Under the pieces are notes generated by a model. The model did not search any database. It was given only the letters and a program-made list of their open reading frames with translations, and was not told the origin of the DNA. 32,000 nucleotides of DNA, taken from the NCBI GenBank assembly GCA_024275415.1, contig JAJRZD010000017.1, positions 75,058 through 107,057 of the forward strand, read 5' to 3'. Made by a program: the position numbers and the translations under genes. This DNA comes from an archaeon (lineage in GTDB: Archaea; Asgardarchaeota; Thorarchaeia; Thorarchaeales; Thorarchaeaceae). Below are positions 2 through 31,482 of the stretch, piece by piece (the stretch's first letter is position 1; every line of letters starts with the position of its first letter).

Positions 2-1147
2 CTTTCACATGCTGATGAGCTCTTCATGAAGCAAAAGGAGGTCGTGCTCAGGTCATGGGATGTGGTTCCCCGCTTCATGGATCGCAAAGAACTCGAGGCC
101 CTTCTCAGCAGGACTGAGGTGACTGAGATTGAGGATAGCATCCCTACTGAGACCCCACTGGACAGGTTTGTCGAGCTTCTATTTTCTGGTGTCAGGGCAG
201 GAGAGAGTGACGATTGGCACATCACTCTTGAGGAAATGCATCGATGGAAGGGATACAATGACATCGCGGACACCAAGATAGTTATTCGCCCACTTAATGC
301 AGCTGGCATCATCGCACCTGTCCTACGAACAGCTCGTGCTTCTCTGCTGATGAGCGGAACCTTGAGACCCACATCACTATATAGTCGTCTCATGGGCGTG
401 CAGGGCGCACTTGAGGAGGACATCACAAGCCCCTTTCCTCGTGGAAGTCGCATGGTGCTTCTTGAGCAGGAGTTGAGTACGAAGTATACCGAGCGTGGGA
501 CGGATTTGTGGAGGAAAATAGCTGGACGAATTGAAACTGCATTGCAGGCCATGCCTGCAGAGAAGTCCGCCCTTATCGCGTTCCCGAGCTATAACACCAT
601 GCAACAAGTGCTCAGCTTCAACATCGACACGGGATACAGGCAACGTGTTGTCGAAGAGCGTGGTGCGAAAATCGAAGAATTGATGGAACTCATCATACAA
701 AAGCCCTGTGCTATTTTCCTAGTGTTTGGCGGGAAGTTCAGCGAAGGTGTTGATCTCGTCCAAGATGGTAGGTCTCTCGTGGATTTGATAATAGGTGTTG
801 GTATCCCGTTCAGTCCTCCCACGCGATACCAACAGGCGTTGCAAGAGTGGTACGACAAAAGGTTTGGCGAGGGCACTGGTTATTATTACTCGTCAGTAGT
901 CCCCTCTATCCGGAAGGTCGTTCAGCTTATCGGACGGCTCCGAAGGTCTCCAGAGGACTCTGGGGTTGTCATGCTAGTGGATCGTCGTTTTGGGAGGCAT
1001 ATCAAGATGTTTGGTAAGGGTATCGAGTCTGACTTGTGGCCTTACAAGACCGATGAGGAGATTCGATATGCTATCAAGATGTTCAATCAACTTAGGCAGG
1101 AGAGTGTAAGAGAGAATGGAACTCCAACAGAATGTTTGGGATGTTAG
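2..1147 (+). CDS. xpd: XPD/Rad3/DinG-family SF2 helicase, C-terminal part (5'-truncated by window edge)
   Basis: Motifs LMSGTL (III), IAFPSY (IV), GGKFSEGVDL (V), GVGIPF and VVQLIGRLRRSPEDSGVVMLVDRRF (VI). The frame is open from base 2, so ATG 26 is not the true start. Confidence 0.88.
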   Translation, partial: LSHADELFMKQKEVVLRSWDVVPRFMDRKELEALLSRTEVTEIEDSIPTETPLDRFVELLFSGVRAGESDDWHITLEEMHRWKGYNDIADTKIVIRPLNAAGIIAPVLRTARASLLMSGTLRPTSLYSRLMGVQGALEEDITSPFPRGSRMVLLEQELSTKYTERGTDLWRKIAGRIETALQAMPAEKSALIAFPSYNTMQQVLSFNIDTGYRQRVVEERGAKIEELMELIIQKPCAIFLVFGGKFSEGVDLVQDGRSLVDLIIGVGIPFSPPTRYQQALQEWYDKRFGEGTGYYYSSVVPSIRKVVQLIGRLRRSPEDSGVVMLVDRRFGRHIKMFGKGIESDLWPYKTDEEIRYAIKMFNQLRQESVRENGTPTECLGC

Positions 1148-1334
1148 GAATCAGATCGTCAAAGTTTCGGCTGGAGGAGCGGTCGCTATCGTGCTGACAA
1201 TGATACTAGGCATTGTTGCAGTGATGGTTCTTGGAATCATCATGCTATGGGCATTTGGGGCACGCTTGACGCTTCGTGGGATGGGCGGCACTATCGATTA
1301 CGAGTCGATACAACAACGTGGTGACATCTTGTGA
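1116..1334 (+). CDS. small hypothetical membrane protein
   Basis: 72 aa with one long hydrophobic segment (AGGAVAIVLTMILGIVAVMVLGIIMLWAFGA). Its TGA overlaps the next GTG start (GTGA, 1331-1334). Confidence 0.6.
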   Translation: MELQQNVWDVRNQIVKVSAGGAVAIVLTMILGIVAVMVLGIIMLWAFGARLTLRGMGGTIDYESIQQRGDIL

Positions 1335-1924
1335 AGATAATGGATTCGTCGGCTCTCAGGTGGTCGATCCCCATCTCATTGGCTAGCGCGTGGGGAATCA
1401 AGGTGGCATTAGACGGCTCCCCAGATGTTCTCCTACAGAGTGTCATCGGGACTGCTGCACTTCTCTTGGTGGTCATGCTTGTCATCAGGAACAGAGGAAC
1501 CACCCGGATTTTCTGGGACGCGGAGAGGAGCCTACTGGCAATTGTCAGGACATGGACAATCGAGGTCAGCGCGGGACGCATGATAGAGAGCATACCCACC
1601 GAGATTGATCTCTCCCACAACAGCAGACGGGTCTTGGTCGCCATGGGTGCACGGTATGAAGACGAAGAAGGCGGCGAGCTGACGTTCTCTGTCCTGCGCC
1701 CCCTTGAGAGCGCACCTACGCTCATGGGGTTTGTTGTTTCACGAAAGAAGATGAGGATCGTCCGCGACTATGTGGATATGCAGTGCTTGGCCGATATGGT
1801 CACCAGTGACTCGCAGGTTCTTGAAAGTGCTATGCGAGCATCATTCTATCACACACCAATTTCAGTGGCTACCGCCGAGACCTTGGTGAGGATGAAGTCT
1901 GGAGGGGTCGCTCTTGCTCGGTAG
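1331..1924 (+). CDS. hypothetical protein with N-terminal transmembrane segments
   Basis: 197 aa, two N-terminal hydrophobic stretches then a soluble alpha/beta region. Overlaps both neighbours. Confidence 0.65.
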   Translation: MKIMDSSALRWSIPISLASAWGIKVALDGSPDVLLQSVIGTAALLLVVMLVIRNRGTTRIFWDAERSLLAIVRTWTIEVSAGRMIESIPTEIDLSHNSRRVLVAMGARYEDEEGGELTFSVLRPLESAPTLMGFVVSRKKMRIVRDYVDMQCLADMVTSDSQVLESAMRASFYHTPISVATAETLVRMKSGGVALAR

Positions 1925-2180
1925 TGATGTGATCTACCTAGAGATTCCATCATCCCTTCCCCTCCCCTCACTGATGGAGTCCCTTGCGATCGGACACGGC
2001 TACCAATGGACAGTCCTCGTAAAGACGCCCAAATTTGTTGCGTGGGGCAAGACTTCGATGGGGCCCGAAACTGAAGTACTGATCATTGGCAGACAGATGG
2101 TTCTGCAAAGTCAGCCCGCTATGGGTGAGCGGATGAAGCATCTAATCAAGGTGCTGGCGAGAAGGAGGAAACAGCGATGA
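1914..2180 (+). CDS. hypothetical protein
   Basis: TTG start preceded by GGAGGGG (1901-1907). ATGA overlap with the next gene. Basic C-terminus ARRRKQR. Confidence 0.55.
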   Translation: MLGSDVIYLEIPSSLPLPSLMESLAIGHGYQWTVLVKTPKFVAWGKTSMGPETEVLIIGRQMVLQSQPAMGERMKHLIKVLARRRKQR

Positions 2181-4516
2181 CACGGAGACATGTGATGGGT
2201 AGTGAGCCCCCAGTCGATCCGGTTGATCAGGTACGTCAGGCAATGCTTTCAGTCACGACGGATAACTCGATAAAGTTCAAGAACCGCAAGATACCAGAGT
2301 CGTGGACTGCCCCTACCGTTATCATTTTTCTATCGTTCATCGGGGTGTTCTTCTTCCCAATTCTTGTCATCATCCTTACGCTCGTCTTCATTCCTTCTCT
2401 ATTTGTGCTTCTCCAACTCCATCGGAGAGAACCCTTCGAGCAAGAAGGGCAGTGGCGTCTTACCCGTTTTACCCTTCCAAAGATAAGGGTTGTAGCAGGA
2501 TCGAAAGCCGTAGAGCTGAGAGGGGAACAGACCTCGTATCTGTCAGGCTCAAAAGTGACAAGGGTGGACAAGCACTTGCGCGGCGACCTTGCTAGTCTGG
2601 TCCGAGGCATCTACGCTGAAGATGGTTTCTGTCTCAACGTATCGATGAAACCAAGTGACACAAGTAGAGTAATGGACCACGATGTGCTGCACAGCAATAT
2701 CCGATCATTCTTACGGACTGGCTTTAGTGGAAGTGTCGAATCCTATATGGAATCACATGGCTACCTCTGGGATGTAGGAGTTTCTATCATTGGCAATATC
2801 CAGGATGAGCACATGGTCAGGAACTTCCAGAATTCCATAAAGGGAGCCCTACCTGTCAAACGATGGAAGACTGTCAAGCCTGATGCGCTGGCACAGACAG
2901 TCGAATCGTTCAACGCACAGAATGTCGAGCACACCTTCTATGCTGTGGGAGAGGAGCTTTCTGGATGGCTTGTCCAGATGCGGTCAGAGCTGACAGGCGA
3001 GGTGGGGATGAACGTCCCAGGGCAGTTCTATGCATCAATCCGTCCGCGTGTGGACGAGATTGCCATCGGCAACGTCATACATCCCGATACCCTGAGAGAA
3101 GGCCCTCCGATTGGACTGCTACCAGAGGAAGTCGCTGATGGCGTGCTAGTGTGTGGGGGTTCTATCGCGAATCGAAGGCTCGTGCTTGGACATCTTATCA
3201 AAGGGCTTCTTGAGCGTGGGAAACGTATCCTCATTTTGAGCGCACATAGCGAGACACAACTATTCACAGCACTCCACGATTCGGGAGTGGGGTTCGTGCT
3301 TGGAAAGAACTTCGTGCTCAACCCCGTAGACAACGAAAGGGTGCCAAGAGCAGAATATGTCACGCAGTTGCTGATGTCGTTGGAAGTCCTTACAGAGAAG
3401 ACACTGACCTTTGCCGCTGACCTTGAGCAGGCACTCGTACGGGCGGTGGCATTACCCTATTCCACTGTGGCAGATGTGAAGATGGAGGAAGACGAGACCA
3501 TCTCCACTGAATCAGGAACCACTTCTCAGCCATCGACATTGGGCGACAACAGGCACTCATTCATGGGGATGGAAGCTGTGCGTCGCCTGTGTCAAGGTGC
3601 GGGTGCTCGGGCGTTTTATGGCACACAGACTGTCTTGATCGAACGGTTGACAGGGCTTCCGCTCAGTGTGCTTTCTGTCCCCCTTGGCAATGATGCTCTG
3701 GAAAACTTCGCTTGGGACCTGCTCCTGTTGAAGCTCGGAGCTGTCAGGCATGACAAGGATTTAGTAGTAGTCCTAGACGACCCATTATCTTTACGATACA
3801 CATTTAGAAGGTTCGGACGCCGAGAGACCTTCATCGAGCGCCTGATGCGAGCTCTTTCTGAACGGTTCAGTCTCATAGTCAGCATCGATCGCCCCAGCGA
3901 CATTGGAACCGGAGTCCGGAGTCTTCTCCAATCATGCATCTCCTTGCGGTTGAAGCATGACGATGATGTTGCCAGTGTCACCTCGACCCTTTCACTTAAT
4001 GTCGTGAGTTCAGGACTACACAGCAAGGCAAGGTGGTCTCCGCGGGAATCGGCATTCCTGCGAACGCTTGATGATGGCATGGCACTCATTGTGCGGGATG
4101 CCACTGAAACTGCACAACCAGTGAAACTTCTCCCGCCTCTGGAACTTGGTTCTATCTCTGATGATGATATGAATTCTAGGATCACTACTGTTGTTCCAAG
4201 CGTTGAGACCCCGTCTGATATGCGGGATGGGACGCTCATCGAACGAGTTGGCAAGGGTGACTCCGAGTTGACTACCCATGTGTTGCGCCTTCTTGAGAGA
4301 TATGAGCCTCTCACCGAGAACGCGGTCAGGAAGTTCATCCAGTCCAAGGGTGCCTTGTCTGAAGATATCGATGTGGAAGGCATCCTCATCCGTCTGAAGC
4401 AGGCAGGAATGATTCTCGAAGGGCATGAAACTCACAGTGGGGTTTCCTACAAGAACTATCGATTGACCATGAAGGGAACGCTTGCACTTAGACAGGCTGA
4501 GGAGGTGACAGGATGA
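2177..4516 (+). CDS. membrane-anchored HerA/VirB4/FtsK-like P-loop protein with degenerate Walker motifs and probable C-terminal winged helix
   Basis: N-terminal hydrophobic hairpin. The Walker A position reads VLVCGGSIANRR (no GKT/S) and Walker B reads VVVLDDP. HerA/VirB4-style segment LIVSIDRPSDIG...LQSCISLRLKHDDDVASV. C-terminus LIRLKQAGMILEG...YRLTMKG is wHTH-like. Confidence 0.65.
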   Translation: MTRRHVMGSEPPVDPVDQVRQAMLSVTTDNSIKFKNRKIPESWTAPTVIIFLSFIGVFFFPILVIILTLVFIPSLFVLLQLHRREPFEQEGQWRLTRFTLPKIRVVAGSKAVELRGEQTSYLSGSKVTRVDKHLRGDLASLVRGIYAEDGFCLNVSMKPSDTSRVMDHDVLHSNIRSFLRTGFSGSVESYMESHGYLWDVGVSIIGNIQDEHMVRNFQNSIKGALPVKRWKTVKPDALAQTVESFNAQNVEHTFYAVGEELSGWLVQMRSELTGEVGMNVPGQFYASIRPRVDEIAIGNVIHPDTLREGPPIGLLPEEVADGVLVCGGSIANRRLVLGHLIKGLLERGKRILILSAHSETQLFTALHDSGVGFVLGKNFVLNPVDNERVPRAEYVTQLLMSLEVLTEKTLTFAADLEQALVRAVALPYSTVADVKMEEDETISTESGTTSQPSTLGDNRHSFMGMEAVRRLCQGAGARAFYGTQTVLIERLTGLPLSVLSVPLGNDALENFAWDLLLLKLGAVRHDKDLVVVLDDPLSLRYTFRRFGRRETFIERLMRALSERFSLIVSIDRPSDIGTGVRSLLQSCISLRLKHDDDVASVTSTLSLNVVSSGLHSKARWSPRESAFLRTLDDGMALIVRDATETAQPVKLLPPLELGSISDDDMNSRITTVVPSVETPSDMRDGTLIERVGKGDSELTTHVLRLLERYEPLTENAVRKFIQSKGALSEDIDVEGILIRLKQAGMILEGHETHSGVSYKNYRLTMKGTLALRQAEEVTG

Positions 4517-6693
4517 TCTCCACTGATCAGGTACACCCGATCATCAAGATGGTCGAAGAAGTTGGTTTCTCGCCACGAGGCATCCAGAGAAAGGCAATCG
4601 AGTACGGACTGCTCGATGGGAAAAGTGTCCTTGTCTGTGCTCCCACGGGTGCAGGGAAGACCCTCATTGGGGAAATGGCACTCCTGCGAGCTATTGAGGC
4701 TGGACGAAGAGGATTGTACCTCGTGCCCCTGAGAGCACTAGCAAACCAAGTCTATAGCATTCTGAAAGAAAGGTATGAGCGTCAGCGGATTACCGTCGGA
4801 ATTTCGACTAGCGACTATTACAGTACCGGTGAGCTCCTGAGTTAATATGACATCCTAGTGACGACTTATGAGAGGGCTGATTCATTACTCAGGCACAGGA
4901 CTCCATGGCTGTCAGAAGTAGGCACATTAGTCATCGATGAGATCCAGAGCCTGGGTCTTCCGGGTCGTGGCGCACGCCTTGAGAGTACTATCATCCGCTT
5001 TAAGAAAATCGTAGAGAACCTTCAGATAGTCGGCCTGTCCGCCACAGTCGGGATGCCTGAGCTGTTGGCTGAATGGTTGGAATGCGAACTCGTCGAATCG
5101 AATGAACGAAAAGTCCCTCTTCTAGTTGCTGTTGCAACACGACCAAACCGTGATGAAGCTGTCCGCACATATACAATGAAGACTATCCAGACCAATGGAC
5201 AGGTGATCATTTTCCACCGGACACGGAAAGAAGCCGAGGCGGAAACAAAACGATTGATGCCTCATGTTTCAAGGCATCTGACAGAAGAAGAGCGGGCACT
5301 CTTGCAATCCACGCTCGGGTCGATAGAGTACTTTGATGCATATCTTCCAGAAGGACTGAGTTCGGCTATGCTGAATGGTGTTGCCTATCACAATGCCAGC
5401 TTGAATGGAGGTGCCAGAAGGATGGTGGAGCGCTTGTTCAGGAAAGGACTTATCCGTGTCATTTGCGCCACAAGCACATTATCTACAGGAATGGATCTTC
5501 CTGCAAGAACCGTCATCATTGCTTCGTGCAGGTCTCCTGCAAACTACAATGAGCTGTTGCCTGCAAATCGAGTACATCAAATGTTGGGACGAGCGGGCAG
5601 ACCTGGGATGGACAGGAAAGGTTACGGTTTTGTGATTGCCCAGAGCAAGGGACAGGCAGAGGAAATCAAGCGCAGGTACTTCATAGAAAGTACTGACGAC
5701 CTAGGAGCCACTGTGCTCCTCCCAAAATATGATCCAGTGAACAGTGTTCTTGGAGATTCCAAGGTGTTAACAGAGCAGCTGCTTGTCGCGTTGGATATGT
5801 TGCGGGAGGGCTCAATTGAGGACGTTGAGGACTTCCTGCTGGCACCGTCACTGCTGACATTCCGTTCAGTTAGACAGTCGCAGCCGACCATGCGACTCTT
5901 CATACTAGGTGAGATTACGGCAGAGGCCGTCATTGAACGGCATGGTTTCATGGATACGGTTCGTGCAGGACGAGGTGATGTTCTGGGAACTGTAGATTTG
6001 AGAGAGAAGACTGAGCACATCATAGGCGGACTGGTGACTGAAACTGGTGGGGCTAGCTATACCTGCCGGTTCAGTACTAGAGTCACTCAGTCAGGAACAA
6101 TGGAGGGTCCTCAATGCTCTTGTGGGAAACCTCTCGATGCCAGTGGTGTTCTCTGTCAGCATCTTGTCACATTAGGGTTACAAGCTATACAGCAGGAGCC
6201 CGAGAGGGCTGACTTTATCATCCCACTTGCATTGGACGAGATCAGCCCCCTCAGGGTGTTGGTACGACTCGGTCTTGTTGAAGGGGGAGAATCCAGCGGA
6301 ACCTATCGACCGACGCCGTTGGGATTGCTTGTATCACGATTATACTTGAGGATCGATACGGCCCGCGAGATGCTAGCAATGATGCCGTTGATTGAGGAAC
6401 CGCAATCCTTTGTCCGGTTCTTGCTGCATCTGATCGAGATTGATACAGGCACAAACCTGGAACAACCACACGAACGTCTTCTTACACTTGCGGCTTCGAC
6501 CACGATGCCCTTTGATCAACTATCCGAATACAGTGGTATCCCAACCGGCGATATCTACACATTCCTTCAACATGCGCGATGGCTGAGCTATGCAGTCATG
6601 GCAATTGCAAAGAAAGGTAATCTGCTTGAACTGAGCGACATGGCACAAAGACTCTACGAGGAGGTTGACGCTCGTTTTACAGGAGGAACTTGA
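4513..6693 (+). pseudogene. Hel308/Ski2-like SF2 helicase with inserted SWIM zinc finger, interrupted by one in-frame TAA (4843-4845)
   Basis: ORFs 4513-4845 and 4858-6693 share a frame and join as ...GELLS*YDILVTTYERADSLLRH. Motifs APTGAGKT, DEIQ, SAT, FHRTRKEAE, TSTLSTGMDLPA and QMLGRAGRPG. SD GGAGGTGA at 4501-4508. The stop may be an assembly error. Confidence 0.85.
6115..6162 (+). other. SWIM-type zinc finger motif (CxC-x10-CxH) inside the helicase
   Basis: CSCGKPLDASGVLCQH, preceded by the beta-rich segment GASYTCRF, matches the SWIM consensus CxCx(n)CxH. Confidence 0.75.
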
Positions 6694-6694
6694 A

Positions 6695-8395
6695 TTGACA
6701 ACATCAGACGAAACAGAGGTTATTGCAAAGGAGGCTACGGCCGAGGACGAAAAGGAAGCGCCAACAAACATGATTGTAGGGCTTCTCGAACGAACAGGAC
6801 ACAAGACCCACATCTATTCGAACGGTATCATTGCAGCCCTTCGACTGGAGGGCATTGAGGGAACGAGAGGGGTTCATGTGGACATCGTGTTCATCGTGGA
6901 CTGGGATTTAGGAGCGTTCACTGGAACCAAGATGGGTACTCAGGCTGTGCTCCTTGAGATTGTCAATAGAAGCACAGACTCGATTCTCAGGGACTTCGGC
7001 TACGGGGATAGGTATTGTACAATATCAAAACGCACGCTAAAAGGCAATGTTTGTATTGACACCCTGTGTCCAGATCTCGGAAAACAGGGAAGTGTTATCC
7101 ATGCCACTCGCACAGTTTACGTGGTCTACGAGGAGCGAAGACCAGGGATGGATTTGTCGTGGTTGACTGAGGAAGCCCGTATCCTTCCAAAGGAGGATTT
7201 CATCGTAGCACGTGAGAGCGATATACGAAGCCACAGACCTGAAGTCCAACGTCGGGTCGCTGAGGAGAAATGGACCTTCCTCAGCCGCGGGCTGGTGTTC
7301 CTCTATGGGATGGCTTTTGCATCGGTTTTTACGATATCGAGTTTGGTCGGTCTTCTTGTGGCGTTCATCAACGCGAATGGTATAATGATCCCATTGGCTG
7401 GATTAGTGGTTGGTGCCGTCCTCTCACTCGGCACCGCTTATCTATCGATAACCCATATCTCCCAGTTCAATAGAGATCTGGAATCGGAGAGGCAATCGCT
7501 TTCCAAAATCGGGGATACTGCAAGAGTCGAGGCCAGTGCCAGCACCAGCAAGGACACGTTAGACCTGCTAAGAGACCTGTCCTTTGTGGTTTCGCCACTC
7601 ATGGCTGAAGTCGGAGGGGCAATCCGTATTGGCGATACCGAGGGGGCCGCTGAAACAGCGAACCTCATCATTGATGAAGTAGTCCGGCTCTCACCTCATT
7701 CAGTGAAGATGGGGGATGAAGGCATCTCCAAGTTCATCGGTATGTTCACGTCGCAGGATCCCGAGTGCGATGTGGGTGAGCTCTCTCTCTGTTATTCTTC
7801 ACTCACTGGGCACATCACTAATCCGCTAAGCGAGGAAGATGTCCTGCGCAATTGTACCGTGCTGCTCAATTCATTGCATAGGATCGGAGGAGTCCGCACC
7901 GAGGTGAAAGAAACTGTTGACAATATGATGAATGAACGCTCGATGAAAGCAGCATTAGCAGAGATTCGCAAAGAGATGGATGTGCCGGTACAAGAGGAGC
8001 CCTCTCAGGAAGACCTCCCTGTTGGTGCCGATGATGCAGACATCAACTTGTTGAAAGAGATGGACAAGGAGGCTGAGGAGATTACCCCTGACGAGCCCTC
8101 AGAAGTGGTCGAGACCGCCAAAGATGCTTTAGACACAGCACATCCCGAAACAAAGGATCATCCCCATTCAGAGGAGGACGATACAGCAGCCAGTGACCAA
8201 CCGGACTCTGGGGAGGTGATTGACTTCGTAGAAGTGGAGGCAGTGACAGTGGAAACGATTGAGGTCACTCCTTCCGTGGAAATCACAGCAGCCGATGTCA
8301 TAGACCAATCCAAGAAAGAAGCAGTAATGTATGCAAACTCAGGACGTGACAACTCTCGTCCTGAACGGAGGAGGAAGGCAAAGAGTGCAGCATGA
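6695..8395 (+). CDS. hypothetical membrane protein with two central TM helices and a long acidic low-complexity tail
   Basis: Likely TTG start at 6695 after AGGAGG (6681-6686); the ORF track starts at 6665. Two hydrophobic segments (GLVFLYGMAF...; IMIPLAGLVVG...). E/D-rich region about 7980-8330 and a basic end RPERRRKAK. Confidence 0.75.
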   Translation: MTTSDETEVIAKEATAEDEKEAPTNMIVGLLERTGHKTHIYSNGIIAALRLEGIEGTRGVHVDIVFIVDWDLGAFTGTKMGTQAVLLEIVNRSTDSILRDFGYGDRYCTISKRTLKGNVCIDTLCPDLGKQGSVIHATRTVYVVYEERRPGMDLSWLTEEARILPKEDFIVARESDIRSHRPEVQRRVAEEKWTFLSRGLVFLYGMAFASVFTISSLVGLLVAFINANGIMIPLAGLVVGAVLSLGTAYLSITHISQFNRDLESERQSLSKIGDTARVEASASTSKDTLDLLRDLSFVVSPLMAEVGGAIRIGDTEGAAETANLIIDEVVRLSPHSVKMGDEGISKFIGMFTSQDPECDVGELSLCYSSLTGHITNPLSEEDVLRNCTVLLNSLHRIGGVRTEVKETVDNMMNERSMKAALAEIRKEMDVPVQEEPSQEDLPVGADDADINLLKEMDKEAEEITPDEPSEVVETAKDALDTAHPETKDHPHSEEDDTAASDQPDSGEVIDFVEVEAVTVETIEVTPSVEITAADVIDQSKKEAVMYANSGRDNSRPERRRKAKSAA

Positions 8396-9071
8396 TCACA
8401 TCGAGCATCTGATCAACGACGGTGGGATTATCCATCTCTCTGGAGAGCCCTTCTCGGGAAAGACTCGACTAGGGATACACTTTGCAGCAAAGGCATCTCA
8501 GTCCGGACATGTGATATGGCTGTGCGCAGACGGAAAGACCTCATTCGTCGAGGACTTGCGAAAGAACATCACAGCGAGTCAGGGAGTGGTATCTAATTTG
8601 GAATTGATCTTTCCGAATGGACATGAAGAAATCTACGAGTCTCTTATGACGATCCATAGTTTCCTTAAGGATGATACAATTCTGGTCGTCATTGACCCCA
8701 TCACCCGAGCTATTGACCTTGGCAGAAGATATGACGATGAGATGTGGGGACGAGAATTGTTCGAAGACGTTCTTCCAAGCCTTGTCGGGCTGGCCATGGG
8801 GAATGAACTATGCATCGTGTTCACAAGTGAAGTACGTATGGGTGAAGGGGGTGCTACCCGTCCTGTGTTTCACAAGAAGCTCACACAGTGGGCTGATGTA
8901 GAGATACACGCAGAACGTGCCATGACGATGACCTATTCTCACCTTACTCTCAGAAGGTGTAATAGTGAACCAGCAGATTTTGGCATCATGCGCATCAAGA
9001 ATGGACTTGTCACTATTGATGTAAGTGGTCAGGAGGTGCAGGATTGTTCGGAAAGCTCGTGTTCCGTCTAG
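8385..9071 (+). CDS. RecA-superfamily RadB-like paralog with intact Walker A
   Basis: IIHLSGEPFSGKT (Walker A), VIWLCADGK and LVVIDPIT (Walker B). Probable GTG start at 8385 after GGAGGAGG; the ORF track starts at 8331. Confidence 0.75.
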   Translation: MQHDHIEHLINDGGIIHLSGEPFSGKTRLGIHFAAKASQSGHVIWLCADGKTSFVEDLRKNITASQGVVSNLELIFPNGHEEIYESLMTIHSFLKDDTILVVIDPITRAIDLGRRYDDEMWGRELFEDVLPSLVGLAMGNELCIVFTSEVRMGEGGATRPVFHKKLTQWADVEIHAERAMTMTYSHLTLRRCNSEPADFGIMRIKNGLVTIDVSGQEVQDCSESSCSV

Positions 9072-9979
9072 CCAAGTGGGGTGTGATAGGCGCGTTCGCG
9101 TTGATAGCGGGCGTCTATTTCATTTCGTCCGTGTCAGGCATAGTCGTCCAGACTAGGACTGGCAACTTGCTACCGTTCGTGAGCCTTGCGGTGGCTGCAT
9201 CACTACTTGTATGGGTGTCGGAGAACAAAGAGATAGAATGGAAGATTGGCGCGCTCATCCTGAAGGTACTCTCAGGATTCTCGGCAGTGTTCTTCCTCCT
9301 CACACTCTTCCTCTTCTTCGCCCCGAACATCATCTTAGGAATCGTTGCTGCACTAGGCGGGCTCTTTTATCTTGCAATGCTTTCGAACCCAAAGTCCTTT
9401 TCTAGAATGATGGACTCGTCCTATGCCTTCTCTGGTGGGCTTGGCCCCATTACCCCTATCAACTATGAGCGTGCAGTCCATGCATTCAAGCAGCATGTAC
9501 AGGCGTATATGATAACACCTGCACAGACAGACACTATCATCACCCATCTCAAGGACCGCCCCCAGCTCCCAATCGCTATCACGCGCTTCGAAGAAACAGA
9601 TATCCTGTATATCCAAGAGAAGTCCGAGGTGACCACCCGGATCCTCTCTCTGCTAGAACTCGCTGCTGTCTCACCAGCGCCACCGTTCCTCACACATATA
9701 GTCGTGGCACTTCCACTGATCGAGAATGAGAACGGGTTTGCTCTCTCGGAATACCGGATTGTGGACGACCAAACAGTCGTCGAGAGGTTGCTGACAAATC
9801 TTCCACTTCGAACCACTGTCATCCCGCACCAGAACGGGCCCCGACTCATTATCCCTGAAGAGCATATCATCGGGATGGACGCCAAGACGATTCCACGTAG
9901 TCACCTCTTCAGGGCAGTAGTGATGAAAAATATCAGGGGATTGGAACCCTCCATGGAGGTCGTGCATGTTGCCGATTGA
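9044..9979 (+). CDS. hypothetical membrane protein (about 4 N-terminal TM helices plus soluble domain)
   Basis: 311 aa with four hydrophobic segments in the first ~115 aa. TTG start after GGAGGTG. Overlaps both neighbours. Confidence 0.7.
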   Translation: MFGKLVFRLAKWGVIGAFALIAGVYFISSVSGIVVQTRTGNLLPFVSLAVAASLLVWVSENKEIEWKIGALILKVLSGFSAVFFLLTLFLFFAPNIILGIVAALGGLFYLAMLSNPKSFSRMMDSSYAFSGGLGPITPINYERAVHAFKQHVQAYMITPAQTDTIITHLKDRPQLPIAITRFEETDILYIQEKSEVTTRILSLLELAAVSPAPPFLTHIVVALPLIENENGFALSEYRIVDDQTVVERLLTNLPLRTTVIPHQNGPRLIIPEEHIIGMDAKTIPRSHLFRAVVMKNIRGLEPSMEVVHVAD

Positions 9980-10703
9980 GGGTGTGTCACTGGATGAGAT
10001 CGAGGTCTGCTTGCAACCTGTCGTACGCCTGCTTCCAAGGAGGCTCGACAGGACGCTTGGGGCATTGCTGTTGCCCAGACAGATATCGGTACTTCATGGT
10101 GCCGAACGGGCTCCTCTGAGTATTATTGCTCACGGAGTCACTGTGTCCAGTCTTCGTCAGAAAAAGGACGCTCGTGTTGTGTTCCTTGACAGTGGTAGCA
10201 ACTACAAACCTAGAACCATCAGGAACCTGTGTAAGATGATGGGCATTTCAGGGGACGATATCAAGCGGATCGTTGTGGGAAAAGTACTTGACCTTTACAA
10301 CCTTGAGCGGATGGTCGCGCAAGTCAAAGGTATGCATGACGTTACAGTGGTCATTCTTGACAATCTGACCTCCACCCTTAACAAATCATTTCCTCCCGGA
10401 AGCAAAGGACGACAGAGGCAGTTATTCCAGACCCTAGAAGATTTCAGGGATCTAGTGAACGAGATCGGATGTCACTTGCTCATCACTGACCATTCTTCTG
10501 TTGACTGGAACTCTGGTGCTAGAACTCCCGTCGGAGGAAATGTATTAGCCCATGCTGTCGACACTCTGGTGTCTGTGACCGTCATCGATTCACATGAACA
10601 TCTGGTTTCGCTCCTTGTGGAACAGACCCCGGTCACACCGATGCCAGCAGGATGTGTGCTGGTCGTAACAGTGGATGGGATACGCACAATAAAGGGGGCC
10701 TGA
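9966..10703 (+). CDS. RecA/Rad51-paralog-like protein with degenerate Walker A
   Basis: RecA-fold layout: ISVLHGAERAPLS (Walker A position, no GKT), VVFLDSGSNY, VVILDNL (Walker B), CHLLITDH and PVGGNVLAHAVDTLV (cf. RadA/RadB GG..LAH). SD GGAGGT. Confidence 0.7.
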   Translation: MLPIEGVSLDEIEVCLQPVVRLLPRRLDRTLGALLLPRQISVLHGAERAPLSIIAHGVTVSSLRQKKDARVVFLDSGSNYKPRTIRNLCKMMGISGDDIKRIVVGKVLDLYNLERMVAQVKGMHDVTVVILDNLTSTLNKSFPPGSKGRQRQLFQTLEDFRDLVNEIGCHLLITDHSSVDWNSGARTPVGGNVLAHAVDTLVSVTVIDSHEHLVSLLVEQTPVTPMPAGCVLVVTVDGIRTIKGA

Positions 10704-10711
10704 GAACAGAC

Positions 10712-11707
10712 ATGGGCGTGCGCAAATGGGACTTCATCCAGTGGGAACTTGCAGACCTTGACGAGATACGACCACGGGTAATGGCAATTGATACCCCGAA
10801 CTACATCACTCGACTGACACAATCGTATGTATATCATCAGAAACGGAGGGATGCAGAACGGATTCCCACGCAACATGTCTGGGCTGTCCTCGGGATAATA
10901 AGACAGGCACTACGACATGGCTTCACTCCGGTATTCGTCTTTGATGGGCCACCAGAAGCCTTGAAACGCCCTCCCAATCCTGAGCTGGTTTCGTCAGCGA
11001 CGGAGCTGTACAGGAAGTTTCGTGAACATAATGACATCTACAACTCGCGATTGGCAGAAGCACTCAACGATAGCAAGGCTATGCAATGGTATTTTGCAGT
11101 CAACCACTTGAAGGATCTGTTCAAGGCCATTGGCATCCCTTCATTCACCGCACCAAGTGAGGCAGAGATGGCAGCTGCGGTTATGGTAAGTGATGCAACT
11201 GCCGGCACTGTTGTCACGAATGACATCGATGCACTCCTTTTCGGGGCACCCCATGTGACCAGGGCAGTCAAGTTCGCTAAAAAACAGATCGAGAGGGTAT
11301 ACCTGAATGATGTGGCGGCAGGGCTCAAGACAGACCTAACTCGTCTCAGAGACCTTGCAATCCTATGTGGGTGTGACTTCTATCCGAGTGGCATCAAGGG
11401 CATCGGCCCCCGCAAGGGACTGGCTCTCCTCAATCAACACGGAAACCTAGAGAGAGTCCTAAAGGCAAGGGGACTCCCCCCAAATGAACGGGCAACAATC
11501 CTCGATGCTAGGGCAGTCTTCGACGAACCTATGTTCCTCCAGTTAGATGGAATCCCCTCCTCGATAAACCCCCCCTTAGTGTCCCGAGTCAGCGAACTGT
11601 TACGCCCCGTCATGGGGAAGGAACGTGCAAAGAAAACTACAGAAGAACTGGTCAAACTCTGGAAAGAGTTCGGTCGAGAGCAAGTCACATTGGAGAGGTG
11701 GACATAG
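10712..11707 (+). CDS. fen: flap endonuclease FEN1/XPG family nuclease with C-terminal PIP box
   Basis: ATG 10712 gives MGV. All seven acidic active-site positions are present (AIDT, VFDG, SEAE, NDID, GCDF), with H3TH GIKGIGPRKG. C-terminal QVTLERW fits the archaeal PIP box QxxLxxW. Confidence 0.9.
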   Translation: MGVRKWDFIQWELADLDEIRPRVMAIDTPNYITRLTQSYVYHQKRRDAERIPTQHVWAVLGIIRQALRHGFTPVFVFDGPPEALKRPPNPELVSSATELYRKFREHNDIYNSRLAEALNDSKAMQWYFAVNHLKDLFKAIGIPSFTAPSEAEMAAAVMVSDATAGTVVTNDIDALLFGAPHVTRAVKFAKKQIERVYLNDVAAGLKTDLTRLRDLAILCGCDFYPSGIKGIGPRKGLALLNQHGNLERVLKARGLPPNERATILDARAVFDEPMFLQLDGIPSSINPPLVSRVSELLRPVMGKERAKKTTEELVKLWKEFGREQVTLERWT

Positions 11708-11904
11708 TGGACAGGCGTATGGTTCTCCCCGAAGATGCATTGAACTCTCCTATTATCGAGTCTGTGTCAAGTCCTTGTGTCGCCTGCATACACTATACCT
11801 ACTTTGGTTGTACTCTTGGACACCCTTGCGCTAGAAAGGTCGTATGGAACGCAATCCAGAGGAGGATCGATTCAAATGAAAAAGAACAAGACCGAACTAT
11901 TTGA
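11698..11904 (+). CDS. small Cys-rich putative metal-binding protein (CX2CX7CX5C)
   Basis: 68 aa, with Cys codons at 11776, 11785, 11809 and 11827. The start is uncertain (GTG 11698, GTG 11707 or ATG 11719). Confidence 0.55.
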   Translation: MDIVDRRMVLPEDALNSPIIESVSSPCVACIHYTYFGCTLGHPCARKVVWNAIQRRIDSNEKEQDRTI

Positions 11905-12022
11905 TATCAGGCAAGAATATGGGACAGTGCTGAGAAAGCATATGCATAGTTCAGGCACTATCACCCAAAACACCCGGACGGTGAGAGTGGCATCTAGCAT
12001 GAGGGTGGAGGTGGACGAATGA
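11876..12022 (+). CDS. possible 48-aa hypothetical protein
   Basis: ATG 11876 follows GAGGAGG and fills the gap before xpf, with an ATGA overlap at 12019-12022. No recognisable motif. Confidence 0.3.
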   Translation: MKKNKTELFDIRQEYGTVLRKHMHSSGTITQNTRTVRVASSMRVEVDE

Positions 12023-12762
12023 GTATCGCAGACGACATCATCATCAATGACTTGGAGCTTGAGATGATCATCAGGGACTGTCCTCAGAACAGGATCATTT
12101 ACGATTCACGAGAGAGCTCAGACTACATCACAAAGCTTCAGGCAATCCTTGTCAACGAGGGGCTTGAGTGGGAGCGGATAATGCTGCCTATTGGGGACTA
12201 TATAGTCAATGGGACAGTGATTGAGCGGAAGACCCCAGAGGATTTTTTGAACTCGATTTATCCTGTTCCGCGTCTGAATAACCAGTTGGTTCATATGTCA
12301 AGGAATTGTGCAGAGTCCGTCATTGCTATCATCGGTAATCCCTGGGCCGCCACTGGACAAGATCCAGTACGAGAAGCCATCGTTTCATCCGCGCTCGCGA
12401 GTATCTGGAAACGGAGGGCCGCTGATGGTGTTAGAGGGATTGTCATCCCCCAAGTGTTCTTGCCTCCTGATGCCGACAGGAGGTTCGCACTTTGGCTGAA
12501 AGCGCTCAGTAGGAAGGAGCCGGTCAGAGAGCTCAAGTTGAGCAGAGGTGCGACAAGTGGTGGAAACCAGTTAGTGCGGACTGTGTCAACTGTGCCCGGA
12601 TGGGGTGTTGAGCTGTCCCGAAGAGCATTGGAAGCGTTCGGTACACTCAAGATGCTGATTGACGCGTCTCCCTCGGATTTGAGCGAGCGTATTGATAATG
12701 TTGGATCAGCCAAGGCTAAGATATTCCATGAATTCTTCAGAAGGCCTTACAATAATAGTTAA
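12019..12762 (+). CDS. xpf: short-form XPF/ERCC4 (Mus81/Hef-type) structure-specific nuclease with HhH2 domain
   Basis: GDYIV...ERKTPED (GDY plus ERKx3D) and RLNNQL. Tandem HhH motifs STVPGWGVELS and IDNVGSAKA. SD GGAGGTGG. Confidence 0.88.
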   Translation: MSIADDIIINDLELEMIIRDCPQNRIIYDSRESSDYITKLQAILVNEGLEWERIMLPIGDYIVNGTVIERKTPEDFLNSIYPVPRLNNQLVHMSRNCAESVIAIIGNPWAATGQDPVREAIVSSALASIWKRRAADGVRGIVIPQVFLPPDADRRFALWLKALSRKEPVRELKLSRGATSGGNQLVRTVSTVPGWGVELSRRALEAFGTLKMLIDASPSDLSERIDNVGSAKAKIFHEFFRRPYNNS

Positions 12763-12786: not shown

Positions 12787-14493
12787 TTACTCGCCAGGTG
12801 AGGACCAAGGATCCATACCATCACTCAGGAACGGATAAAGACGAGTTGGCAATGAAATATAGCTGCTCTGCTCTTCATGGACCAGAGTGGCTGCAAAATC
12901 CAAACCTTTTGCTTCAAGTTCCTCCCGAATCTTGCTGCGTACCAAGACACTCCTTAATCTGGGTGTTCGCAAGAACGTGACTAGATTCCTGCCATCACGT
13001 GATAACAGGATCCGAGCAAAAGGGATAGCATCTCGGAACCAACTGATTGCCCAGTCTATTTCCTTCTTCCTAGCATTCCTAATGGCAAGGAGAAAGACCT
13101 CCGGAAGACCCGCTAACTCCAGCCTAGGATGGTGGACTACGTCTATGATGCCCGAGTCCATGAAATTCTGCATGAACTTTTGCGGATTCCATCGGTCCTC
13201 GCCCAACCACCTTAGCAGAAGGTGTTGGCTTTCTCTAGAAGATATGTTCCAACACATCCTAGACAGCACAAAGAATTCTTTCCGTGGTGGGATTCCTGCC
13301 ATGCGGTCTGTGAGCGTGCTTCCACACAGACGCGAAAGGGTCTCATCGGGGATACCTTGATGGTTCCAAGGGGCCACGACCCACTCTCCAGACTCTCGCT
13401 TGAACAAGTCGTATCTTATCGAGATCACTTCATTGTCCACCACTACATCGATTGCCCCGTCCGGCAGCGCCCTTGGTCCTCCAGATGACACCGGCTCCAG
13501 ATGTACTTGGACCGAACGGAAGGGTGAAGATGAAAGATAAAACGTCGTCGCATAAGTGGCAATATTGACCGGACCGGGCACACCCGGGAAGAATATGAAC
13601 CGATAACGCAATCCCAATGCGTTCGGGCTCAATATGAACCGTCGAGAGAACATGTGAGTTGGGATATCGGTAGCTGCGGGGACACTGATGTCAAGGAGAG
13701 TGGCGAGGGACTTTGCCGATAATGCATGGAGCACATTACTATGGAGAAGACTTGATGCTACCGTGAACATCTGGGAGTTCCTGAGGAGGTTCATGCCCGA
13801 CCACAATCGCATGATGAATCGTCTATGTGAGTCATTCCAGAGTAGCGTGTCGGGAGTCAAAGTCAATGATGGGACGTATGTCCGGGGTAGTTTCTCATCG
13901 CCTCTCGAATTGACACATGCTATCCATTCGACCTTTTGTTTCAACATTGACACTACGCTATAGATGAAAAGGAGTGCATTGGTAAAGGGGTCAAGATCAG
14001 GCGAAGCAAGTTGGGGTTTGTATTTCCTACGCAGTCCCATGAGCATGATCCTGCCAATGACATAGGCCAGACTATGGCGAGTTTCCAGCTCTGATAGCAA
14101 GTCAGGGTCTGATTTCAGTTTCCGCCTTATCCGTTCGAGATAATCGGGGTCATTCCGGTGCTGTTTCACATACTCCATGAATCCTTCAGGACTGCTATCC
14201 ATCGTTAGGGGGTGGTCAGGAAGCAACGTGTACACCTGAAACCAGAAGGTCTGACCAAAGGGTGTCCTTCCAACCGTGCGGATATCAGGATGGTACTTGA
14301 GGAACTTGTCATATGTCCATCCTTCTTGTCTGAACGGATGTATGTTTCGGGACTTCTCGAACTCGGTAATTGAGAATGCCGGATACCCGTTAGGATATAG
14401 ATGCTTGTCAGCAAGAGATCTCAGTACCAATCTGTCCTGATAGACTCGACTCTTGCTTGAACGCATAACCTCCAGTGGTATCCTCATCGCCAC
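12787..14493 (-). CDS. hypothetical protein, probably with tandem Lrp/AsnC-like HTH and effector-binding modules
   Basis: 568-aa ORF. LSAKSLATLLDIS is HTH-like. ILSPNALGLRYRFIF and FMDSGIIDVVHHPRLELAGLPEVFLL resemble the Lrp hinge. Recognised by eye only. Confidence 0.5.
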   Translation of the reverse strand: MAMRIPLEVMRSSKSRVYQDRLVLRSLADKHLYPNGYPAFSITEFEKSRNIHPFRQEGWTYDKFLKYHPDIRTVGRTPFGQTFWFQVYTLLPDHPLTMDSSPEGFMEYVKQHRNDPDYLERIRRKLKSDPDLLSELETRHSLAYVIGRIMLMGLRRKYKPQLASPDLDPFTNALLFIYSVVSMLKQKVEWIACVNSRGDEKLPRTYVPSLTLTPDTLLWNDSHRRFIMRLWSGMNLLRNSQMFTVASSLLHSNVLHALSAKSLATLLDISVPAATDIPTHMFSRRFILSPNALGLRYRFIFFPGVPGPVNIATYATTFYLSSSPFRSVQVHLEPVSSGGPRALPDGAIDVVVDNEVISIRYDLFKRESGEWVVAPWNHQGIPDETLSRLCGSTLTDRMAGIPPRKEFFVLSRMCWNISSRESQHLLLRWLGEDRWNPQKFMQNFMDSGIIDVVHHPRLELAGLPEVFLLAIRNARKKEIDWAISWFRDAIPFARILLSRDGRNLVTFLRTPRLRSVLVRSKIREELEAKGLDFAATLVHEEQSSYISLPTRLYPFLSDGMDPWSSPGE

Positions 14494-14752
14494 ATCATAT
14501 CCACATACCTGTTGCAGTCAATGGTTAAAAAAACACCCATCCTTGTTAATATTTGAGGTGAAACTTTCGCCAATCGGTATTATTATCGCTTTGTTTATTT
14601 GTATGGGTGCTAAAACCTGATAATTTTTGCAAATACCAATCAATACAACGCATCATGTTATACAGAAGTCTATCATTCCTTTATCATGGTAAACGAAAGC
14701 TACATGCCTATTGGTTTCCCCTTATACGTGGAGAGATTGTAAATTGCAATTG
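14494..14752. promoter_or_regulatory. AT-rich divergent promoter region
   Basis: ~260-nt non-coding gap between divergent genes, much more AT-rich than its flanks, with several TATA-like runs (TTAAAAAAA, TTAATATTT, TTATAC). Confidence 0.5.
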
Positions 14753-15343
14753 ATGGACATCCAAACACTGGTTCTGGTCAACCTGTTCTTATCCATCCAG
14801 CTCACGCCGCTTGTACTTGTGAGCGTGACCATAATCAGGGGAGTCCTTCTGCTACGAGGTCGGAAACGGGAGTTTGAGGACTGGACGAGAAACCCGTTGA
14901 TGGCGGTACTGTCTATCATCTTCCTTCCGGGAACATTGATCTACATAGGGATACGCTACGCCATCACGAGGCTGGCTCGAATCAGGGTTGACCGCATCAG
15001 CGGGTCAAGCACCTACGGAGAGGTCAACCTCTTTCTCGTCGTCGAAGATCCCCCAAGCCTTGGAATCGTCCTTGTCGCCCTTTATTCGACCTTAGTCCTG
15101 ACAGTCTTCGTAGCACTTACTCTTCTCGTGTTGCCCTTGGCACTAGTGCCCAATCTACCACTCTCGGTTCTCCTCTGGTATGTGGGAGTGGGCACTTTCT
15201 ACAATGCATCCGTCCGCAGCGGTGACGCAAGTCTTGTCCTTTCCTCGCTTCGGGACAACCCACGACGAGGAGCGCTAGAGCTTGTCGCATTCATCGCATT
15301 GCTATACATACTCCAAACACAACTCGTGGTGATGATCCTATGA
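14753..15343 (+). CDS. membrane protein resembling M50-like/zincin membrane peptidases but lacking HExxH
   Basis: Likely ATG 14753; the ORF track starts at 14711. IFLPGTLIYIGIRYAITRLARIRV aligns with the family pattern FLPGTxxHELSHxxxxxLxGxxV with H/E/H replaced, and a later VRSGD matches the PSxxD-like motif. ATGA overlap with the giant gene. Confidence 0.55.
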   Translation: MDIQTLVLVNLFLSIQLTPLVLVSVTIIRGVLLLRGRKREFEDWTRNPLMAVLSIIFLPGTLIYIGIRYAITRLARIRVDRISGSSTYGEVNLFLVVEDPPSLGIVLVALYSTLVLTVFVALTLLVLPLALVPNLPLSVLLWYVGVGTFYNASVRSGDASLVLSSLRDNPRRGALELVAFIALLYILQTQLVVMIL

Positions 15344-23570: not shown

Positions 23571-23603
23571 GCAGACGACCAAAGACTTGCAGGATAGATC
23601 TGG

Positions 23604-30901: not shown

Positions 30902-30923
30902 AAACACCCGGAGATGGTAAATC

Positions 30924-31463: not shown

Positions 31464-31482
31464 GTGATAGTGCTCAGACTAG

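Follow-up and report, generated by a model that had tools for sequence, protein, structure and literature searches.

Thorarchaeota carry a tightly coupled operon that we read, with about even confidence, as a second, private set of homologous-recombination enzymes built around membrane proteins and an inactive VirB4-type protein, p779. We infer that its most likely function is that of a recombination machine acting on DNA at the membrane; that the proteins form a complex, that the reaction takes place at the membrane and which DNA serves as substrate are predictions of the same kind. This toolkit, which stands apart from the housekeeping set, comprises one recombinase with two partners of the RecA fold, a pair of helicases that run in opposite directions, and a FEN paralog with a PIP-like tail. 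It is always encoded alongside membrane proteins and a disabled conjugation-type motor, and occurs in looser form in at least six other Asgard families. Full-text literature searches found no description of the cluster.

Organization and conservation of the operon

The window, the whole 32,000-nucleotide stretch of DNA that was analysed, opens inside the operon. An initial guess that the DNA is Asgard proved right. All genes of the chain lie on the forward strand, in the order XPD2, tm72, p197, p88, p779, Hel308b, p576, RadB-like, tm311, Rad51-like, FEN2, p81 and XPF (coordinates are given with each gene below). A preliminary description had claimed a co-oriented, overlapping chain with four-base stop/start overlaps at positions 1331, 2177, 4513 and 12019. 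The ORF coordinates agree at all four positions, the ATGA being read directly at 4513, and the largest intergenic gap in the chain is 69 nt. The span of 12.7 kb given in the same description was too short: the first ∼4 kb of the operon, from G000:C119:70996 on, lie outside the window, and the whole covers 15.8 to 16.8 kb. Five genes make up this upstream extension, one of them a third RadA paralog (RadA2). The core operon comprises 15 genes over ∼15.8 kb, ordered u1-u2-RadA2-u3-u4-XPD2-p197-p88-p779-Hel308b-p576-RadB-like-tm311-Rad51-like-FEN2, the FEN-like gene (FEN2) being the last.

Core gene order was unchanged in genome stretches of 13 relatives and in 46 public loci, two overlapping sets labelled nearly throughout as Thorarchaeota. 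Median intergenic gaps, calculated on about 30 to 46 species loci with the same order, ranged from -35 to +20 nt. Order and gaps kept in relatives thus bear out the coupled chain and its synteny across the family. Membrane genes were co-inherited with the repair genes in fixed order, as had been supposed, and independent inheritance was not seen. The operon is best explained as vertically inherited in Asgard archaea.

The surroundings are also conserved. The convergent neighbour m568 (12787-14493, reverse strand), for which no Pfam or PADLOC match was found, occupies the same place in most Thorarchaeota loci. Beyond it, p210 (5 TM) and a giant protein of 2606 aa, joined by an ATGA overlap (14711-23160, forward strand), form a conserved pair located downstream of the operon in the Thorarchaeota genomes checked; in a sister-family genome (G025) the pair is co-oriented and contiguous with the operon. 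Conservation of these three neighbours as well puts the operon locus at a fixed chromosomal position.

A second set of recombination enzymes

Canonical copies of the repair genes, whose presence elsewhere had been proposed as a check, were found in the same genome (FEN1, 431 bits; Hel308, 594; RadA, 467; Hef, 806; XPD, 306), and the operon copies therefore constitute a second set. The proposal that they are paralogs of housekeeping enzymes was correct, the operon repair proteins falling far under NCBIfam equivalog cut-offs. In trees, the canonical FEN1 and RadA clades leave out the operon copies. Among genomes in which canonical RadA shows 87-95% identity, that of RadA2 is 49-55%; to judge from these identities, the operon copies evolve much faster than the canonical set. 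Ortholog alignments revealed that catalytic motifs are retained in RadA2, RadB-like, XPD2, Hel308b and FEN2.

Three proteins have the RecA fold. RadA2, encoded upstream of the window, is a full-length protein that has both the HhH domain and unbroken Walker A and B motifs; it scored 197 bits, under the TIGR02236 equivalog score of 361 (467 for canonical RadA, on contig C116). The RadB-like protein (8331-9071) is a small ATPase of this fold, Walker A and B both being intact (GxxxSGKT and hhhhD conserved), matching TIGR02237 with 42.5 bits against a cut-off of 172. The Rad51-like protein (9966-10703) is a core domain (Pfam Rad51, 41 bits) in which HGxERxPLT stands in place of Walker A GK[TS], a loss shared by 34 orthologs. 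Its profile matches RadA, Rad51 and DMC1 chains in the PDB (E 1e-10 to 1e-16).

XPD2 is a 660-aa XPD/Rad3-type paralog (Pfam Helicase_C_2, HBB and DEAD_2) whose gene starts upstream of the window, at G000:C119:74222, the C-terminal 381 aa being encoded at 2-1147. It shares 28% identity with canonical XPD (contig C10), its two halves scored 83 and 70 bits against TIGR00604, under the 247-bit cut-off, and 41 orthologs keep GVGKT, DEAH and the four cysteines of the FeS cluster. A match of XPD2 to type IV DinG (252 bits) was discarded as generic, canonical XPD scoring higher (318 bits).

Hel308b (4513-6693) is a Hel308/Ski2-type paralog in which motifs I, II and VI and a CxC-x10-CxH zinc-finger motif (6115-6162) are conserved in 40 orthologs. 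It scored only 274-327 bits with the NCBIfam Hel308 models (NF040935 / NF002654; cut-offs 887-1200) and is devoid of HhH domain 5, Pfam HTH_61 and HHH_5 not being matched, whereas canonical Hel308 has both. The Hel308-like helicase of the preliminary description is thus identified as a paralog, but its reading frame in this genome is broken (4513-4845 plus 4858-6693). The interruption is a TAA in frame at 4843-4845, after motif Ia and before motif Ib of the helicase; the gene would have 726 codons if the stop were read through. No TAA occurs at this position in 58/58 relatives, most of which have Glu there, making a GAA to TAA change likely.

FEN2 (10652-11707, with a likely start at a conserved MGV at 10712) is a flap-endonuclease paralog scoring 132 bits with TIGR03674, under the equivalog cut-off of 352 (431 for canonical FEN1, on contig C123). 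The acidic active-site motifs AID, FDGPPE, PSEAEM, NDxDALLFG and GCDF are conserved. Most orthologs keep a C-terminal Q-x-T-L-E-x-W PIP-like motif, so FEN2 probably acts on PCNA.

Two further ORFs follow FEN2. p81 (11777-12022) is a doubtful 81-aa ORF bridging FEN2 and XPF, with no homolog in the relatives' loci compared and no Pfam match. XPF (12019-12762) is a short nuclease of ERCC4 plus HhH2 type (Pfam ERCC4, HHH_2 and HHH_5), a type with 3'-flap specificity, and its nuclease motif (GDY...ERK...D) and HhH2 are intact. The gene was absent from all relatives' loci compared and had no ortholog in 40 relatives' genomes, where the best match was 33% identical; identity to Hef of its own genome is 32%. 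Being found only in this genome and absent at this position in relatives, XPF was rejected as a core member, and on this comparison it is a genome-specific addition at the operon end. The gene content first proposed therefore stands for XPD, the Hel308-like helicase, the two RecA paralogs (here RadB-like and Rad51-like), the FEN1-like protein and five TM proteins, and falls for XPF as a conserved operon member.

p779 and the other membrane proteins

A hydropathy scan placed TM segments in five proteins: tm72, p197, p779, p576 and tm311. p779 (2177-4516; 779 aa) combines an N-terminal TM hairpin, a VirB4-like N-domain, an ATPase-fold domain and a winged-helix-like C-terminal domain. In an AF2 model (pLDDT 75), residues 285-657 gave their best structural match with the VirB4 C-domain (4ag6; Z 28.4, rmsd 2.8 A, 321 residues); HerA matched with Z 24.7, and full-length TrwK/VirB4 aligned to residues 100-667. 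Walker A reads GGxxxxR, an invariant R333 replacing the lysine and no Ser/Thr following, and the Walker B acid is variable. Neither Walker A GxxxxGK[ST] nor a conserved Walker B acid was present in any homolog (37 Thorarchaeota orthologs and 9 proteins from other Asgard families), so that p779 is not catalytically competent by motif. Canonical ATP hydrolysis would be impossible and p779 is therefore not a motor. It is best explained as a membrane-anchored, catalytically inactive VirB4-type ring protein. The p779 gene is single in each genome and keeps the same chromosomal place and neighbours in the genomes and genera examined.

The other proteins of this group have few recognisable relatives. 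tm72 (1116-1334) is a small membrane protein with one ∼40-aa hydrophobic stretch; similar small TM ORFs occur only in the five nearest loci, and elsewhere XPD2 abuts p197. Compared with the VirB2-like 2-TM pilin of Ced/Ted (CedA1/TedC), tm72 is small and hydrophobic but limited to the nearest clade, and it has no sequence match. p197 (1331-1924), with a TM segment at the N-terminus and a soluble domain, is conserved in 35 loci and has no Pfam or PDB sequence match; the small soluble p88 (1914-2180) is conserved in 32 loci and has no Pfam match. p576 (6665-8395) is composed of an N-terminal beta-rich domain, a TM hairpin, a helical domain and a disordered acidic tail. It is conserved in 29 loci, and its AF2 model (pLDDT >90 for most blocks, residues 40-440) gave no significant PDB match. 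tm311 (9044-9979) begins with 3-4 TM helices and ends in a soluble domain of ∼190 aa. The VirB6-like channel of Ced/Ted (CedA/TedA) has 6-7 TM helices, against these 3-4 in tm311 and 5 in p210; neither tm311 nor p210 had a Pfam or PDB sequence match.

Looser versions in other Asgard families

In six other Asgard families, the pseudo-ATPase and a TM partner gene lie beside second-copy genes. The second copies there scored 325-334 bits for RadA (canonical, 480-489), 139-299 for FEN (449-518) and 172-305 for Hel308 (625-639). A RadB-like gene and small and polytopic TM proteins are also present, and the profiles of p197 and p779 both match the TM gene that precedes the pseudo-ATPase. Weaker matches to the p779 profile were obtained in ∼1260-aa proteins of the largest family sampled (f9), which we guess to be Lokiarchaeia; because of these matches, published omics of cultured Lokiarchaeia are worth re-reading. 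p779, RadA2, Hel308b with its zinc finger and FEN2 are concrete targets for biochemistry.

Proposed mechanism and alternative explanations

In the mechanism we propose, p779 and the TM proteins p197, p576 and tm311 would serve to hold, or to receive, the end of a DNA molecule at the cytoplasmic membrane. XPD2 (5'-3') and Hel308b (3'-5') would unwind the DNA, providing the motor activity lost by p779. RadA2 would perform strand exchange, with the RadB-like ATPase and the ATP-dead Rad51-like protein as putative mediators, and FEN2 would trim 5' flaps, probably on PCNA. This reading draws on the fixed order, the tight coupling and the interleaving of five TM proteins with enzymes, together with paralogy, retained catalytic motifs, the VirB4 fold of p779, the fixed locus, recurrence in six Asgard families and the precedent of Ted loci beside herA and rad50 (PMC9905601). 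It has to accommodate a VirB4-like protein that is not a motor, the lack of recognised VirB6-like and VirB2-like components and seven conserved proteins with no assigned function (u1-u4, p88, p576 and tm311). Moreover, fast divergence of operon proteins is also typical of conflict systems, and the stop in Hel308b, if real, would deprive the machine of one helicase, at least in this genome.

The VirB4 resemblance could also reflect DNA uptake or cell-to-cell DNA exchange of Ced/Ted type, in which DNA would enter via the TM proteins and the p779 ring and then be recombined into the chromosome by the operon enzymes, the giant protein mediating cell contact. VirB4 is the best structural match of p779, with an N-domain that aligns to full-length TrwK/VirB4, and the N-terminal TM hairpin recalls known VirB3-VirB4 fusions. 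In several Asgard families the module comes with small 2-TM and 4-5-TM proteins. Both p210 and the 2606-aa protein are adjacent in all cases (in the same direction and contiguous in G025), and Ted loci adjoin recombination genes (PMC9905601). On the other hand, no p779 homolog keeps the Walker A lysine or Ser/Thr, unlike CedB/TedB, which are thought to power transport (PMC9905601). Pfam and PDB sequence searches recognised neither a VirB6-like channel nor a VirB2-like pilin, and pilus genes were not seen in the locus. Nor, as far as we know, has any Asgard archaeon been shown to exchange DNA, which also speaks against this explanation. We regard it as rather unlikely, and judge alike the existence of a so far undescribed Asgard envelope apparatus for DNA intake or exchange, based on an ATP-dead VirB4 descendant, powered by dedicated XPD- and Hel308-type helicases and tied to its own recombinase, mediators and flap nuclease. 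If true, Asgard archaea, the archaea closest to eukaryotes, would possess a machine dedicated to gene exchange and recombination, with the neighbouring giant protein acting in cell contact.

Fast divergence would also suit defence against viruses or plasmids, with membrane sensors and a HerA-like scaffold directing helicases and nuclease at foreign DNA. Structural matches of p779 include HerA-fold proteins that partner nucleases or Sir2 in defence systems, and Hel308b is weakly similar to Hachiman HamB helicases (∼112 bits). PADLOC-DB 2.0 returned only generic helicase matches, 13/18 proteins having none, so that no system was matched and the DinG match of XPD2 is generic. In addition, the p779 gene is single-copy, in the same place and with the same neighbours, unlike mobile and patchy defence islands, and a full recombinase, two mediators and a PCNA-linked flap nuclease suit repair better than destruction; we consider defence improbable. 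Equally little weight is given to an ordinary cytoplasmic repair operon with membrane genes as passengers, or to chromosome segregation or replication restart at the membrane. Operons can hold unrelated genes, and FEN2 retains a PCNA-binding (PIP-like) motif, which points to replication-coupled work. Yet four TM genes are interleaved with stop/start overlaps at every locus over family-level divergence, the module and TM genes recur in other Asgard families in different gene orders, and in p779 a TM hairpin and the fold of a DNA motor are parts of one protein.

Comparison with known systems

In some Asgard archaea (Heimdall-, Njord-, Gerd- and Lokiarchaea), a clade of RadA paralogs has been reported that is separate from the main RadA of the same MAGs (PMC12722695). 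The paper is silent on gene context, the words operon, neighbo- and Thor- being absent from it. The operon-linked RadA2 copies resemble this clade in falling outside the canonical RadA clade in our own tree, a likeness that does not imply shared identity.

Like the Mre11-Rad50-HerA-NurA operon, the operon encodes a ring protein of the HerA/VirB4 clade and a 5'-polarity nuclease, feeding a RadA recombinase. A Pfam search of the operon proteins found no NurA, Mre11 or Rad50; here the ring protein is membrane-anchored and devoid of ATPase motifs, and the nuclease is a FEN paralog.

Eukaryotes possess HELQ with RAD51 paralogs, and SWIM-finger Shu/SWS1 complexes. Similarly, the operon encodes a Hel308-family helicase and RecA-fold paralogs, one of them without the ATPase motif, and Hel308b carries a CxC...CxH motif of SWIM type, Pfam SWIM itself not being detected. 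The likeness is one of gene content and motifs, and the membrane components of the operon have no counterpart in HELQ or Shu/SWS1 systems.

Ced (Sulfolobales) and Ted (Thermoproteales) are DNA-import systems derived from domesticated type IV secretion systems, and the position of Ted loci beside the recombination genes herA and rad50 has been read as import-recombination coupling (PMC9905601). The operon shares with them a membrane-associated VirB4-fold protein and several small or polytopic membrane proteins. It differs in that its VirB4-like p779 has no Walker lysine or Ser/Thr, in that no VirB6/CedA-like or VirB2/CedA1-like protein was recognised in it by Pfam and PDB sequence search, and in that it holds private paralogs of its own: two SF2 helicases, three RecA-fold proteins and one FEN.

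A conserved operon of repair genes and membrane proteins

The forward strand of the window carries, from position 2 to 12762, a continuous chain of ORFs whose neighbouring ends overlap or almost abut. Pfam and NCBIfam searches identified the repair products in this chain as two helicases (the C-terminal part of XPD and a Hel308-like protein), two RecA-fold proteins (RadB-like and Rad51-like) and two nucleases (FEN1-like and ERCC4 + HhH2), while a hydropathy scan placed TM segments in tm72, p197, p779, p576 and tm311 (named by length in amino acids). Since ORF chain, family matches and TM scan agree, the preliminary description of co-oriented, overlapping repair genes mixed with five TM-protein genes was right at its coordinates. 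The window covers positions 75058-107057 of contig C119; the operon does not start within it but upstream on the same strand, at position 70996, after a divergent GH3 gene. In order, the genes thereby added encode u1 (227 aa), u2 (149 aa), RadA2 (361 aa), u3 (153 aa) and u4 (201 aa), followed by XPD2's N-terminal half; RadA2 is a RadA paralog of full length and contains an HhH domain. Directly before u1, about 550 nt (C119:70447-70995) hold no listed ORF of at least 80 aa on the + strand; this sole long intergenic stretch of the operon is likely its promoter region. Scans of the window for tRNAs and Rfam families gave no match.

Gene order was compared in 13 genome stretches from relatives and 46 public loci, two sets that overlap. 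Wherever the contig was long enough, the order u1-u2-RadA2-u3-u4-XPD2-p197-p88-p779-Hel308b-p576-RadB-like-tm311-Rad51-like-FEN2 was fixed. The proposed association of repair and membrane genes thus held across relatives, a single order, membrane genes included, being common to both sets. Median gaps between neighbouring genes were -35 to +20 nt, and the relatives' operon proteins were only 22-67% identical to those of the window's genome. The related loci are mostly labelled Candidatus Thorarchaeota, several Promethearchaeota or uncultured archaeon, and one Hermodarchaeota; this last MAG (L104, JBHLLF010000010.1) has a complete Thorarchaeota-type operon. A 2.1-kb contig in a Desulfuromonadales bin (L095, MAXT01000013.1), with p779 of the Thorarchaeota type and the beginning of Hel308b, is probably misbinned. 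Scanning contigs with the p779 sequence alone yielded no confirmed locus; the loci were found by an alignment-based scan.

Not all of the window's chain is conserved. The XPF-type gene (12019-12762), which the preliminary description had counted as an operon member, was absent, together with the preceding 81-aa ORF, from every relative's locus compared; its product is 33% identical to its best match in 40 relatives' genomes and 32% identical to the Hef of its own genome. A counterpart of tm72 is limited to the five nearest loci.

Conservation extends downstream, where the operon is followed by the convergent m568 and then by p210 and a giant protein (about 2600 aa); the operon therefore holds a stable chromosomal place. 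A mobile-element reading was rejected because these flanks are kept across genera. In most Thorarchaeota loci, m568 (568 aa; window 12787-14493, minus strand) separates the operon from p210; it has no Pfam or PADLOC match. The genes for p210 (5 TM helices) and the 2606-aa protein, joined by an ATGA overlap (window 14711-23160), come after the operon in all Thorarchaeota genomes checked. The sister-family genome G025 has a shorter version, in which RadA2-u3-u4-XPD2 is followed by two small genes, p779, Hel308b and a gene for 503 aa; m568 is absent, and p210 and the giant protein come next without interruption, in the same orientation. Given this contiguity and shared orientation, the pair and the operon may form one functional unit. 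The remainder of the window (23205-32000) holds more ORFs on both strands, e.g. 25324-26784 (-), 27486-29567 (+) and 29537-30901 (+), and GC content reaches 0.56-0.57 at 28-30 kb.

The operon enzymes are a second, divergent set

All operon repair genes score far below the NCBIfam equivalog cut-offs, and a higher-scoring copy of each is present elsewhere in the same genome. As the preliminary description had suspected, canonical counterparts exist: FEN1 (contig C123, 431 bits), Hel308 (C43, 594 bits), RadA (C116, 467 bits), Hef (C123, 806 bits) and XPD (C10, 306 bits), the last sharing 28% identity with XPD2. Using an identical set of five genomes for each protein, identity to the window's genome was 87-95% for canonical RadA versus 50-55% for RadA2, and 62-78% for canonical FEN1 versus 40-53% for FEN2. 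Judged by these identities, the operon copies evolve far faster than their canonical counterparts. In maximum-likelihood trees, no operon-linked copy falls within the canonical FEN1 (support 100/98) or RadA (100/99) clade, so the operon paralogs are not recent duplicates of Thorarchaeota housekeeping genes. Because the divergent copies sit on long branches and their mutual relationships are poorly resolved, we do not claim a single origin for them. A second RadA clade has been described in some Asgard lineages, its gene context not being given (PMC12722695).

Divergence has left most catalytic motifs in place. We saw no loss in RadA2 (GxxxxGKT, Walker B, HhH domain), the RadB-like protein (GxxxSGKT, Walker B), XPD2 (GVGKT, DEAH, four FeS cysteines) or FEN2, which keeps the acidic active-site motifs and a Q-x-T-L-E-x-W tail similar to the canonical QSSLSDFF PCNA-binding motif. 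The Rad51-like protein retains a Walker B-like hhhhD stretch (VVLDSLT) and is predicted to be ATP-dead because HGxERxPLT stands in place of its P-loop.

Further copies were noted outside the operon. Two relatives have a third FEN-like gene (G007:C14:48923-49879 and G017:C21:11939-12895), 41-43% identical to canonical FEN1 and placed inside the canonical side of the tree, with an in-frame TAA in one of the two; a TIGR03674 search found no such third copy in the window's genome. In that genome, canonical XPD adjoins a RadA-like frame with an in-frame TGA (C10:15829-19156; 54 bits to TIGR02236), and the same contig has a Hel308-like match some 10 kb away.

An in-frame stop in Hel308b

The Hel308b gene appears as two ORF calls (4513-4845 and 4858-6693) that share one frame and are split by a single TAA at 4843-4845, immediately ahead of the YDILVTTYERADSLLR motif. 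This site is read through in 58/58 relatives in which it could be examined, with Glu in most, so the stop likely originated by a single GAA to TAA change. It is either a real nonsense allele or a consensus error; if real, it would be recent, since the other codons are intact. Stop-codon recoding is unlikely because the position is a sense codon in all relatives and none of the other operon genes requires recoding. Hel308b keeps motifs I, II and VI and a conserved CxC-x10-CxH motif (6115-6162); it is without the HTH_61 and HhH domain 5, both of which canonical Hel308 has. A survey of archaeal Ski2-like helicases covering 27 Thorarchaeota genomes did not single out this paralog (PMC10946056).

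p779 is a VirB4-type pseudo-ATPase

An AlphaFold2 model of p779 (37 orthologs, mean pLDDT 75) began with a TM hairpin, followed by an alpha/beta N-domain, a domain of RecA-type ATPase fold and a winged-helix-like C-terminus. The best structural match was the VirB4 C-domain (4ag6; Z 28.4, rmsd 2.8 A over 321 residues, 18% identity), ahead of the DndH C-domain (Z 26.1), HerA (24.7), TrwB (21.4) and FtsK (15.9), and model residues 100-667 also aligned with full-length TrwK/VirB4. The P-loop reads GGxxxxR, with an invariant Arg for Lys that is not followed by Ser/Thr; the Walker B acid is variable. Since the degenerate loop is common to all nine aligned homologs from other Asgard families (9/9), these proteins are old pseudo-ATPases rather than products of local decay. 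The family is small: 191 representatives match among 1.84 billion proteins (E <= 0.001).

The other uncharacterised proteins gave less. Foldseek and VIA-align wide comparisons of a confident p576 model with the PDB returned generic helical hairpins only and no matching solved structure; a HEPN assignment was rejected, the four-helix match being sub-threshold (Z 9.3) and an invariant His or Arg pair absent. Protein atlas searches with p576 and u4 gave no usable match, PDB sequence searches with u4, tm311 and p197 profiles nothing, and family searches for u1-u4, p88, p197 and tm311 no match. An hhalign comparison of p197 with p779 was not significant (E 0.07).

Related modules in other Asgard families

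When 400 genomes of the phylum were searched with a profile, full-length p779 was confined to the window's family (53/85 genomes, many incomplete) and its sister family. Several other families have short forms of about 500-570 aa, and the largest family sampled gave weaker matches, to proteins of about 1260 aa. Near the short p779 in six families (f7, f8, f12, f21, f22 and f24) lie Hel308-like, RadA-like, RadB-like and FEN-like genes, a TM gene matching p197 and the N-part of p779 alike, and small 2-TM and 4-5-TM proteins; in f7 they form a compact co-oriented operon whose order is unlike that of Thorarchaeota. There too the linked enzymes are second copies: linked RadA scored 325-334 bits versus 480-489 for canonical copies elsewhere, FEN 139-299 versus 449-518 and Hel308 172-305 versus 625-639. 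We conclude that the module is widespread in Asgard archaea, as is its link with membrane proteins; of the versions examined, that of Thorarchaeota is the largest and most compact.

Possible functions of the operon

Taken together, these results demonstrate a conserved, co-inherited set of active-looking recombination enzymes amid membrane proteins and a dead VirB4-type protein that is anchored in the membrane. A search of the full-text literature found no published description of this cluster. Its proteins are probably co-translated, and we infer that they act jointly on DNA at the membrane. There, p779 could form a ring or dock, with XPD2 and Hel308b as motors; strand exchange would fall to RadA2 and its two RecA-fold partners, and FEN2 would trim flaps on PCNA.

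A defence system would account for the fast divergence of the operon proteins and so fits in part, but inheritance is strictly vertical, single-copy and fixed in place, and no PADLOC system matched. Joint action on DNA at the membrane might, alternatively, serve to import or exchange DNA. This reading fits but is weakened by the dead ATPase of p779 and by the lack of recognised VirB6-like or VirB2-like parts; in its favour are the relatedness of p779 and VirB4, the number of small TM proteins, the giant protein adjoining the operon and the precedent of the Ted loci, which adjoin herA and rad50 (PMC9905601).
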